Below, in pieces: positions 56,142 to 60,141 of a stretch of 64,000 nt of DNA. The notes below the pieces were generated by a model. That model made no database searches. It saw only the letters and a list, made by a program, of their open reading frames with translations, and was not told where the DNA came from. Position 1 is the stretch's first letter. Each line of letters begins with the position of its first letter. A program made the position numbers and the translations under genes. The stretch is from Dictyostelium discoideum (taxonomy: Eukaryota): positions 352,001 to 416,000 of the forward strand of contig CM000154.2 in assembly GCA_000004695.1 (NCBI GenBank), read 5' to 3'.

Positions 56142-56812
56142 TGAACTTTGATTTGACTTTTTTTCTGTTAAACTTATTAATTGTTCTGGTGGTATTTCAT
56201 TTGATTGTGGTTGATTTTCACATTGATTTGAAATGTGTTTAAAAACTTGTTCTATATTTATATTATCTTTTGCAGAGGTATCAAAGTAAGTTAGATTGCC
56301 ACCAATGTTATCTTTACACCATTGAATAGCGGCTTTCTCTGTAACTACTCTATTTGGATCATCGATTTTATTTCCTAAAATAATGAATGGAAATAAGATT
56401 GGATCTCGAATTTCTGTTTTTTCAATGAAATCATCTCTCCAAAGTTTTAAATCGTAAAGTGTCTTCTCATTGGTTACATCAAATACCAATATACAATAAT
56501 CTGCTCCTCTGTAATATGATATCTCTAAACTTCTGAATCTCTCTTGACCACTTGTGTCCCATAATTGAAGTGTAACCATATTTTCACTAACCATAACGAA
56601 ATCAACTCCAATCGTTGGTTTCAATGTAACAAATCTTTTATCGACATATCTTCTTAATATACTAGTTTTACCAACACTAAATTAAATAAATTATAAAAAA
56701 AAAAAAATAGTTAATAGCTTGTTGTTGTTGTTGTTGTTGTTTTTTTAAAATTTTTTACATACCTTTTCTCACCTATAATGACAACTTTAATAATTTTCCT
56801 TCCTTTTGTCAT
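56133..56812 (-). CDS. Rab-family small GTPase (Rab7/Rab32-like) with a C-terminal CC prenylation motif, 2 exons: complement(join(56133..56676,56763..56812)), 197 aa
   Basis: Exon 1 is MTKGRKIIKVVIIGEK. A GTATGT donor and AATTTAG acceptor join it in phase 2 to SVGKTSILRRYVDKRFVTLKPTIGVDF (P-loop and switch I), then LWDTSGQERFRSL (switch II), ILGNKID (NKxD), FDTSAKD (SAK), and it ends ...NQSSCC*. Confidence 0.85.
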
Positions 56813-56837
56813 GTTATGTGTTTTAAAAAATTGTAAT

Positions 56838-56876
<39 letters not shown>

Positions 56877-57540
56877 CTTTTTTTTTTCTTTTTTTTTTTG
56901 TTTATGTAAAAAATATAAGTACATATAAAACAAAAAAATCTATAGAAAATTTTAAAAAAAAAAAATAAAAAAATGAAAAAAAAATAAATGAAAATAAAAA
57001 TTATTAAAAAATAAAAATTCACGATGTATTAAACATTTTATAAAATTGAGTTGTGCTGGTTTGGTAAAAATCTCAAATTTTTAATTAGATAAATATAGTA
57101 AAATTAAAATTCAATAAATTAAATTTTAGTTTTATTTTTATTTTTTTCTATAGTTTTATTTTATTTTTATTTTTATTTATTTGGTTTCATTTTCATGTTT
57201 ATTTTTTATTTTTAATTTCCTTTATAATTTTTTATTTTTTTGAAAAAAGAAGAAAATAAAGAACATTTTTTTTTTTTTTTTTTTTTTTTTTTTGTTTTTT
57301 TTTTTTAAATATTGAACAATTAGTGTTTATTAAGGAATTAAAACTATATAATTAAAATTAAAATTCATAAAAAACTATAATTATATAATTTTGAAAATTA
57401 TTAAAAAGCAAAAAATTTAAAATAAAATCTTTAATAAGATCCTAGCAATTTTTTAAAGACCCAAAGGTCCTTAACTATTAAATTATAAAAAATTAAACTG
57501 CCAAGTTATTGTATTATTTTGGGTTTCATCTCTATTTAGA

Positions 57541-57560
57541 GAGTTGAACTAGCGATCTTA
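57541..57560 (-). promoter_or_regulatory. Putative external B box (ex-B) downstream of tRNA-Gly
   Basis: The minus-strand sequence ...AGTTCAACTC... lies about 27 to 36 nt 3' of the tRNA end. It resembles the B-box consensus GGTTCGAATCC, as is typical of Dictyostelium tRNA genes carrying an extra downstream B box. Confidence 0.3.
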
Positions 57561-57583
57561 TTTAAAAGATAGGGAAAATTTTA

Positions 57584-57654
57584 TGCGTATGCTGGGAATC
57601 GAACCCAGTTCGCATCCGTGGCAGGGATGCATCATACCACTAGACCACATACGC
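57584..57654 (-). tRNA. tRNA-Gly (anticodon GCC), 71 nt
   Basis: The reverse complement is GCGTATGTGGTCTAGTGGTATGATGCATCCCTGCCACGGATGCGAACTGGGTTCGATTCCCAGCATACGCA. The acceptor stem GCGTATG pairs with CATACGC, with discriminator A. The D-loop is AGTGGTA. The anticodon stem CATCC pairs with GGATG, around the loop CTGCCAC with anticodon GCC. The T-arm is GGGTTCGATTCCC. A TTTT Pol III terminator lies immediately 3' (minus strand). Confidence 0.9.
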
Positions 57655-57699
57655 TTTTTGGTGAATATTTTTCTAAATAATAGCTTTTTATATGGTAAA

Positions 57700-57929
57700 A
57701 TATCTCTTAAAGCTTCTCCAAAGATCCACAACTCCCCCTGCATCTGGTGTAACGAATAGGAAACCTCAGAACATATCTTCTTTAAATGCAAACCACACAC
57801 TAAAGAAACTCAAGAGTGCATCAACTTCATTCAAGAAAAATCTGGAGGATCCAGAATCAATTGGGGAATAGAAATCTTCAACAGACCAGACATTCCATTA
57901 ACAGCCAACGTTATTCCATTCAAAAAAAA
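57700..57929 (+). mobile_element. GC-richer fragment, about 230 bp, ending in oligo(dA). It is a putative 5'-truncated relic of a tRNA-targeted non-LTR retrotransposon (TRE5-like), about 45 bp upstream of tRNA-Gly.
   Basis: Its base composition departs sharply from the flanks (ctccaaagatccacaactccccctgcatctggtgtaacgaataggaaacctcag...ccattc + A10). It carries a 55-codon open frame and terminates in an A-run at 57916..57925. Its position relative to the tRNA start matches the known integration preference of TRE5 elements. Confidence 0.3.
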
Positions 57930-58281
57930 AATTTAAATGGTAAACAAAAAAAATTAAACTATAATTAAAAACAAAACAAATAATAAAATCCAAATACATC
58001 CCAAAATTAAAAAAAAAAAATAAAAAATAAAAAAAAATTAAAAAAAGAAACAAAATTAACGATTGAAAATTTTACTTAATTTAAATATTGTAATAAAAAG
58101 CCAGATATTTTATTAAAATAAGCATAAAATTGGTTAAAATTAAAAAATAATTTAAAATTAAATTATTTTTAATTATATAATTACAACCCACCAAAACCAA
58201 AACTAAATTTTAATATCATATTATATTTATTTTTTCCAGTTTTTATAAAAACTTGATGAATTCCCCCAAACCAGGATGACT

Positions 58282-58319
<38 letters not shown>

Positions 58320-58586
58320 TAAACATTAATACAGCCATAGCCCAGTGATTTGTGCAAGCTTTGTCAGTCAACTGGATATTAATAATAAAAAAAAAAAAAA
58401 TAAAAAAAAAAAATAAAAAAAAATAAAAAAAAAAAAATAAAAAAAATAAGAGTGGCGGAGGGAATCTTCACAAAAATCTAGTGTCGGAATTGATTTCTTC
58501 TCAAATAAATGAAAAAAAAAAAAATAAGAAAAGTAAGATAACTATTCAAAAAAAAAAAAATAATAAAAAAAAAATTAAAATATTGG

Positions 58587-58811: not shown

Positions 58812-59045
58812 GAAAGAAATCAAACTGCTCACATTAAAAATTTTATAAAATTTTATAATTTTTGTGCAGTTTCGAGGTAAATTTCATATGATCAAAAAAA
58901 TTAAAAAAAACAAAAAAAACAAAAAATAAATAAATAAAAAAAAAAAAATTAAATTTTTTTAAATTTACCGAGGTACAATCAATTTTAAACCAGAAATTTC
59001 ACAAAAAATAAAATTAAAAAAAAAAAAAAAAAAAAAAAAACCCAG

Positions 59046-59082
<37 letters not shown>

Positions 59083-60141
59083 CCCGGTTTACCAAAGTTT
59101 TGGTTTGGACCGCGGTAAACTTTCCCTATTGGGGGAAAACCCCACACCACCCATTCACACCACATATTAAAAAATTTAAAAATAAAAAAATAAAAAAATA
59201 AAAAAAAATAAAAAAAAATTATCTTCTCTTACAACTGTTACTTGTTTTTTTAATTTTTATAATAATAACAAAAAAAATTTTTTAAAAAAAAAAAAAAAAT
59301 TTAATTTAAAAAAATTAAAATTTCAATACCACCACCTTGCACCATTCACACAAACAGAGTAAATTTCAAAATTTATCACCATATTATTAAATTTTATTAA
59401 ACAGAAATAATAAATTTTTATATAAAAAAAATATATAAAAAATAAATATAATTATAATAAAAAATAAATAAAATTATTATTTTATTTATTACAAATACAA
59501 TAATTAGATTTTAGTAGTTTATCATTTAAATATGTATAATTTTTTTTTTTTTGTATAAATTGTTTTTATAATAAAGCATATTTTTTTATTTTCAAAAAAA
59601 ATAATATATGTATAAAAAAAAAAAAAAAAAAAAAAACTTTTATATTTTTCATTATTATAATTAATTTTTTTTTTTTTTTTTTTTTTAAATTAAATACACT
59701 TGTATACATAATAACTAGAATTTTCCTACCAATATTTTTTATTTCTTTTTCGGTATCACATTGTATTTATCTCTGCAATTTTTTTTTTTTTTTTTTTTTT
59801 ACTAATCCATTACCAATAATTAATTTTTTTTTTTTTTTAATTATCTTTTTTTTTGTTTTTATTTTTTTTATTTTTATTTATTTTTTTTATTTTTTTTTAT
59901 TTTTTTATTTTTTTATTTTCCAAACGACACTTTTCCTTCGTTTTATTAACTTTTTTTATTTTTTATTTTTTTTTCATTTTCATTTTTTTAAAAAAAAAAA
60001 ACTTAATTTAATTTCTAGAATAAAAAACAAAACCTTAAAATATACAACTGTTGAAAATTATAATTTACAAAAACAAATAAATTAAACAAATTAAATAAAA
60101 AAACAAACAAACAAATCAAATCAAATCAAATCAAATTAATA

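Follow-up and report, generated by a model that had tools for sequence, protein, structure and literature searches.

Three families of TRE5 retrotransposons have been described in Dictyostelium discoideum (PMC5911963), and their transcription is oriented opposite to that of the tRNA gene (PMC3159450, PMC5911963). In the well-studied and active family TRE5-A (DRE), 59% of the copies in the reference genome lie within 47±3 bp upstream, and non-templated 5' nucleotides are frequent (PMC5391098). TRE5-C is described in strain AX4 from an incomplete consensus of 879 bp and 18 copies, 18/18 of which lie 38-95 bp upstream of tRNA genes (PMC5006619, Table 1), a full-length copy being absent (PMC5006619). 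The published identity between its C-module and the TRE5-A C-module is 78%, and a 3' B-module is lacking (PMC3159450). On the side of the target, an external B box (ex-B) has been reported at ~80% of D. discoideum tRNA genes (PMC5911963).

The locus described here, part of a 64 kb stretch of D. discoideum DNA (the window), resembles both families. As in TRE5-C, a segment carrying an ORF2 zinc knuckle and ending in a C-module terminus and oligo(A) lies upstream of a tRNA gene with its 5' end toward the gene, and is flanked by a target-site duplication; it differs from TRE5-C in being shorter (232 bp), in its 434-bp internal deletion and in its premature stop. With TRE5-A it shares the 47±3 bp position, the orientation, the oligo(A) tail, duplications in the range of 13-16 bp, a related C-module and the ORF2 domain order APE-RT-zinc finger; it differs from TRE5-A in the sequence of the ORF2 fragment (51% amino acid identity) and in that the duplicated B-module of the TRE5-A 3' UTR is absent from the family to which the window copy is assigned. 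The locus very probably comprises a tRNA-Gly(GCC) gene with its ex-B and a 5'-truncated, internally deleted TRE5-C relic with its target-site duplication, of which no function would be expected. Both the class of element and its configuration are already known, the locus being a textbook case of how retrotransposons target tRNA genes in the compact genome of D. discoideum. The consequence is one of annotation, in that the segment calls for masking as a TRE5-C relic and should be treated neither as a gene nor as a new RNA-associated element; there is little wider import. The features are collected in Table 1 together with those of the reference loci L002 to L005.

Table 1. Features of the tRNA-Gly(GCC) locus (window positions) and of the reference loci
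Locus	Feature	Position	Strand	Basis or remark
Window	ex-B, ATCGCTAGTTCAACTC	57541..57556	-	B-box consensus match
Window	T4 run in TAAAATTTTCCC, candidate Pol III terminator	57575..57578	-	5 nt past tRNA-Gly 3' end; read from sequence
Window	tRNA-Gly(GCC) gene, 71 nt	57584..57654	-	ARAGORN; Rfam RF00005
Window	Target-site duplication, tRNA-proximal copy, TTTATATGGTAAA	57687..57699	+	12/13 against distal copy
Window	Extra A at 5' junction	57700..57700	+	Alignment boundaries; outside duplication and homology
Window	ORF2 fragment (aa 823-895 of 1000-aa ORF2), probably TRE5-C	57701..57910	+	BLASTN, phmmer, BLASTP
Window	CX2CX7HX4C zinc knuckle in ORF2 fragment	57739-57789	+	In-frame TAG 57757-57759
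Window	Terminal 13 nt of probable TRE5-C C-module, cgttattccattc	57909..57921	+	Alignment to L002, L003
Window	A10, oligo(A) tail of the element	57922..57931	+	Directly after C-module terminus
Window	Target-site duplication, distal copy, TTTAAATGGTAAA	57932..57944	+	12/13 against proximal copy
L002 (GCA_054883475.1, CM142509.1)	tRNA-Ser(GCT)	5755-5837	-	Reference locus
L002	Element, 5'-truncated	5883-6740 + A8		866 bp total
L002	3' end			ORF2 stop, A-run, ~100-bp module ending ...aattgcgttattctattc + A8
L002	Target-site duplication			tgttctcgcagaa / tgttgtcgcagaa
L003 (other D. discoideum isolate)	tRNA-Lys(TTT)	5390-5464	-	Full-length relative from 5514
L003	3' end and duplication			...gcgctattccattc + A7; ggtcattgatttttaa, 16 bp
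L004 (TRE5-A)	tRNA-Asp	2873-2945	-	Element 48 nt upstream
L004	B-module			~330 bp, duplicated 5 kb apart
L004	3' end and duplication			C-module ending ...gcgttatccaattc + A12; caaatgattttca
L005 (TRE5-B-like)	tRNA-Asp	3065-3137	-	Element ~6.0 kb
L005	3' end			ORF2 stop directly into poly(A), without C-module

The tRNA-Gly(GCC) gene and its external B box

The tRNA-Gly(GCC) gene was found by ARAGORN and by the Rfam model RF00005, which covers these 71 nt over its full length (63.6 bits, E=8e-13; gathering score 29). It is the sole tRNA called by ARAGORN and the sole Rfam match at the gathering threshold in the 64 kb scanned, which is in agreement with the initial annotation, where a canonical minus-strand tRNA-Gly(GCC) had been given as the only RNA gene of the window. 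The sequence contains the cloverleaf, the anticodon, an internal A box (TGGTCTAGTGG) and an internal B box (GGTTCGATTCC), with GTTCGATTC at tRNA position 51. A T4 run shortly after the gene is a candidate Pol III terminator, and with its internal A and B boxes, this terminator and an external B box typical of the species, the gene would be a standard Pol III tRNA-Gly(GCC) gene.

The core of the external B box, GTTCAACTC, lies on the tRNA strand at 57549..57541 (-), 34 nt downstream of the gene, and fits GTTCRANNC. When the 16-mer is compared with the extended consensus GTCnnnnGTTCRAnYC (PMC3159450, PMC5391098) it agrees at 15/16 positions, the unconstrained n positions being counted, and the sole specified position to differ is the first, which is A and not G. 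The B-box-like sequence AGTTCAACTC that had been noted previously is present, and the extra B box that had been placed ~30 nt downstream of the gene is confirmed as a motif, with the distance now set at 34 nt. Genome-wide, the B-box core motif occurs about once per 7.5 kb (PMC5391098). In a survey of the nine tRNA genes of the window and the fetched loci, five carried the core on the tRNA strand 29-34 nt past the 3' end, the distance being 34 nt at tRNA-Gly and 29-31 nt in the other four. On the strength of its sequence and position, the motif is identified as the external B box already known from Dictyostelium tRNA genes; it is a putative second site for TFIIIC, which presumably binds there. 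In the five cases measured, the distance from the internal B box to the ex-B is ~52-55 bp from core to core (~55 bp at tRNA-Gly), whereas a review puts this distance at ~100 bp (PMC5911963).

Homology and boundaries of the upstream segment

The tRNA-Gly gene is separated by a 45-nt spacer (57655-57699) from a segment with a GC content of 38.7% (57700-57921), the flanks having 13.9% and 17.8% and the whole window 23.8%. The initial annotation had described this as a ~230-bp segment of higher GC content ~45 bp upstream of the gene, and it was found to measure 232 bp. The open frame that had been reported is present on the plus strand, although its length is 58 codons (57760-57933) and not 55; likewise the A10 run does close the segment, although it ends 2 nt beyond the position 57929 given for it. 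The frame does not open with ATG, is directly preceded by an in-frame TAG (57757-57759) and enters the A-tail. Translation of the plus strand gives ...KASPKIHNSPCIWCNE, a stop, ETSEHIFFKCKPHTKETQECINFIQEKSGGSRINWGIEIFNRPDIPLTANVIPFKKKI and a further stop, so that a CX2CX7HX4C zinc knuckle is split by the TAG. The window is identical to D. discoideum assembly GCA_054883475.1 over 56109-58284, which includes the whole feature, and the neighbouring proteins (one of 455 aa, record CM142511.1) are also encoded in that assembly.

The 79-aa translation gave no match in a word-indexed protein search. An exhaustive phmmer search of 1.84 billion representatives recovered 16 proteins with E-values from 2.6e-37 to 1e-17. 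The best match, P0001, is DDB_G0282541 of D. discoideum AX4 (85% identity, E=2.6e-37), which is named a reverse-transcriptase zinc-binding protein in UniRef and is encoded in GCA_054883475.1. Another, P0002, is a protein of 993 aa with an RVT_1 domain (Pfam, E=3e-32), and its residues 818-889 align with the window peptide. On the segment itself, Pfam zf-RVT gave a weak match (E=0.002, 19 bits, under the curated cut-off of 27.5 bits). At the nucleotide level, BLASTN aligned 57701-57910 with L002 6086-6295 (94.3% over 210 bp, E=1e-91) and with L003 10562-10771 (84.3%). The segment is thus homologous to the TRE ORF2, which encodes an APE-RT-zinc finger protein, and the match to a Dictyostelium non-LTR ORF2 bears out its earlier reading as a TRE5-family relic. 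Both BLASTN alignments start at 57701, and upstream of this position nucleotide identity is at the background level of ~30%; an apparent BLASTX extension back to 57634, over the tRNA gene, was for this reason discarded as an artefact. There are 12 substitutions in the 210 bp compared with L002, among them the C>T at 57757 that makes the TAG stop.

The ORF2 homology ends ~105 codons before the ORF2 terminus. After ...acagccaacg (57910) the sequence continues with ttattccattc and then A10. The string cgttattccattc matches the C-module ends of L002 and L003 at 12/13 positions each, the mismatch positions being different, and BLASTN alone also picked up a match of 20-22 nt at the C-module terminus. 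An alternative fit of the 3' junction, in which ORF2 would continue for 12 more diverged nucleotides up to a fortuitous A-run, gave 8/12 with a gap, clearly worse than 12/13 against two copies. In the reference copies the C-module terminus passes directly into an A-run (A8 in L002, A7 in L003, A12 in the TRE5-A of L004). Because the 13-nt terminus stands directly before A10 as it does in these copies, A10 is taken to be the genuine oligo(A) tail of the element.

Compared with L002, 434 bp (6296-6729) are absent, and a CG microhomology joins ORF2 to the C-module end in the junction string AGCCAACGTTATTCCATTC. The alignment shows the relic to be 5'-truncated and also internally deleted by these 434 bp; of the C-module, the final 13 nt alone are kept. 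This internal deletion, which leaves 13 nt of the 3' module, is the only mildly informative detail of the locus. Internally deleted derivatives of TRE5-A are known (TRE5-A.2). It is possible, if rather doubtful, that the junction arose from a template jump of the reverse transcriptase, with priming on the last 13 nt and a skip of 434 nt, or that it marks a small deletion subfamily of TRE5-C. Such a subfamily may be non-autonomous and keep only the extreme 3' recognition end. If either were true, the junction would inform how few 3' nucleotides the TRE5 reverse transcriptase needs.

The initial annotation had proposed a search for target-site duplications at the flanks of the segment, and a 13-bp duplication was found (TTTATATGGTAAA / TTTAAATGGTAAA, in merged form TTTA(T/A)ATGGTAAA). 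Its copies agree at 12/13 positions and abut both ends of the element, with one extra A at the 5' side. At a fixed position, at least 12/13 matches occur in 0.46% of random AT-rich pairs, and 0/577,834 such pairs match as well when the 13-mer has at least two G/C, as here. When random AT-rich sequence was scanned with a wide tolerance in position and with low-complexity stretches kept in the background, 2.6% of sites reached the observed score, in every case through low-complexity runs. The control duplications at L002, L003 and L004 measure 13-16 bp, and the A10 run and 13-bp duplication of the window copy thus have the form of the oligo(A) tail and variable-length duplication of TRE5 elements. 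Since non-templated 5' nucleotides are frequent in TRE5-A (PMC5391098), the extra A at 57700 may be such a nucleotide.

Relative to tRNA-Gly +1, the element begins 45-46 nt upstream (-46/-47). It lies on the plus strand and the tRNA gene on the minus strand, with the element 5' end toward the tRNA 5' end and the A-tail distal. In the reference copies the element starts 45 (L002), 49 (L003) and 48 nt (L004 TRE5-A) upstream, and each has its 5' end turned toward a tRNA gene on the minus strand. The window copy therefore lies within the 37-95 bp upstream range of TRE5 elements and in their fixed orientation, and the earlier proposal that the truncated 5' side faces the tRNA gene at a TRE5-type distance of ~50 bp agrees with the geometry of its relatives and with the published rule.

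Studies of TFIIIC/TFIIIB-dependent targeting of tRNA genes through the ORF1 protein are confined to TRE5-A. A likely course of events may be drawn from what is established for TRE5 and other non-LTR elements. TFIIIC/TFIIIB on the tRNA-Gly gene would guide the TRE5 pre-integration complex, and the endonuclease would nick ~47 bp upstream of the gene. Target-primed reverse transcription at -46, primed on the oligo(A)/C-module end, would then yield a cDNA of 210 nt of ORF2 and the 13-nt 3' terminus, either through a template jump at the CG microhomology or through later deletion. Staggered cleavage of the second strand would produce the 13-bp duplication, and the inserted copy would read, in order, 13-bp duplication, extra A, 210 bp of ORF2, 13 nt of C-module, A10 and second copy of the duplication. 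The 12 substitutions in 210 bp compared with L002, the TAG stop and the single mismatch in the duplication show that the copy is old and dead. Homology, geometry and duplication agree with the old 5'-truncated TRE5 insertion that had been suspected, the family being refined to TRE5-C.

Family assignment and alternative explanations

In BLASTP the window peptide shows an identity of 81-85% with the group of P0001, P0017 and P0036, of 51% with TRE5-A (P0031) and of 31% with TRE5-B-like proteins (P0040/41). P0031 was identified as TRE5-A by its duplicated B-module, and the element of P0040/41 is ~6.0 kb long with a 3' end that lacks a C-module. An A-run and then a C-module come after the ORF2 stop of L002 and L003, and a B-module repeat is present only in the TRE5-A of L004; the region in which a 3' UTR B-module would lie is deleted in the window copy. 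Over their last 87 nt, of which the window copy retains the final 13, the C-modules of L002 and L003 share 72-75% identity with the TRE5-A C-module. The L002 copy, at 866 bp, is close to the published 879 bp (PMC5006619). The C-module, the lack of a B-module, the length of the L002 copy and the peptide identity of 81-85% lead us to assign the copy to TRE5-C, a label inferred from published descriptive criteria and by elimination. The DGLT-A LTR (13-33 bp upstream) and TRE3 (downstream of tRNA genes) were each ruled out on homology, distance and side.

That the copy belongs to TRE5-A or TRE5-B is improbable. The insertion geometry and the ORF2 zinc-finger region are common to all TRE5 families, and there is a weak BLASTN match to the TRE5-A ORF2 in L004 (70% over 122 bp); however, peptide identity is far lower to both than to the C group, and the 13-nt terminus is closer to the C-group C-module than to that of TRE5-A (ttatccaattc). 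As for TRE5-B, close ORF2 identity and a 3' end without C-module would be expected, but the peptide is only 31% identical and a C-module terminus is present, whereas TRE5-B has none (PMC3159450; L005).

The segment might instead have been cut at both ends by ordinary genomic deletions, A10 then being AT-rich flank and not a tail. [quoted passage not shown] As the 13-bp duplication also begins directly after A10, we regard such an origin as very improbable. Hardly credible is a host exon or UTR, or a domesticated zinc-knuckle peptide gene. It would account for the 58-codon frame, and similar AX4 fragments such as DDB_G0282541 are indeed annotated as 'hypothetical proteins', but the TAG splits the zinc knuckle, the frame begins without ATG and runs into the A-tail, every homologue is a piece of retrotransposon ORF2, and in the 3.3-kb gap between the genes for an Arf-like GTPase and a cysteine dioxygenase (CDO) no gene was called. 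No second copy of the fragment was found in the window (matches were only poly(A) noise), and no further TRE relics were found in the 3.3-kb intergenic region by BLASTN against L002-L005 or by BLASTX against the retrieved proteins.

Observations at neighbouring and reference loci

The 3.3 kb intergenic region is unusually long, and at 58230-58510 it holds short GC-richer islands (e.g. ccagtttttataaaaacttgatgaattcccccaaaccaggatgactg, cagccatagcccagtgatttgtgcaagctttgtcagtcaactgg, gagtggcggagggaatcttcac) with A-runs of at least 30 between them. The islands gave no match to Rfam or to the fetched TRE5-A, B or C loci. At 45188-45654, 48452-48586 and 59043-59140 the window shows dense substitutions and indels against GCA_054883475.1; elsewhere the differences are mainly in homopolymer lengths. 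The last of these patches is an odd GC-rich island between runs of A30 and T36, and all three suggest poor sequence quality in one or the other assembly and not biology.

At L003 (GCA_054859355.1, JBTAPG010000066.1) a full-length TRE5-C-like element occupies 5514-13334 upstream of tRNA-Lys(TTT), with a spacing of 49 bp. A duplicated A-module is present together with a called ORF1 (439 aa), ORF2 (1000 aa) and a C-module, and ~2.1 kb at 10998-13088 interrupt the element. At 84% nucleotide identity to the AX4-type copies, it may represent a sister subfamily. At L002 three same-strand tRNA-Ser(GCT) genes lie ~4.5 kb apart (1031-10248) with an ex-B at each, and the matches of 70-74% to the window fragment at 2067-2176 and 3698-3847 suggest other diverged TRE ORF2 relics between them. 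At L005 (GCA_054883475.1, CM142511.1) an (ATA)n microsatellite lies past the poly(A) of the TRE5-B-like element at 9400-9990, followed by a second TRE ORF2 C-terminal fragment and diverged C-module-like sequence. Upstream of this one tRNA-Asp gene, TRE5 relics are thus nested and piled up.
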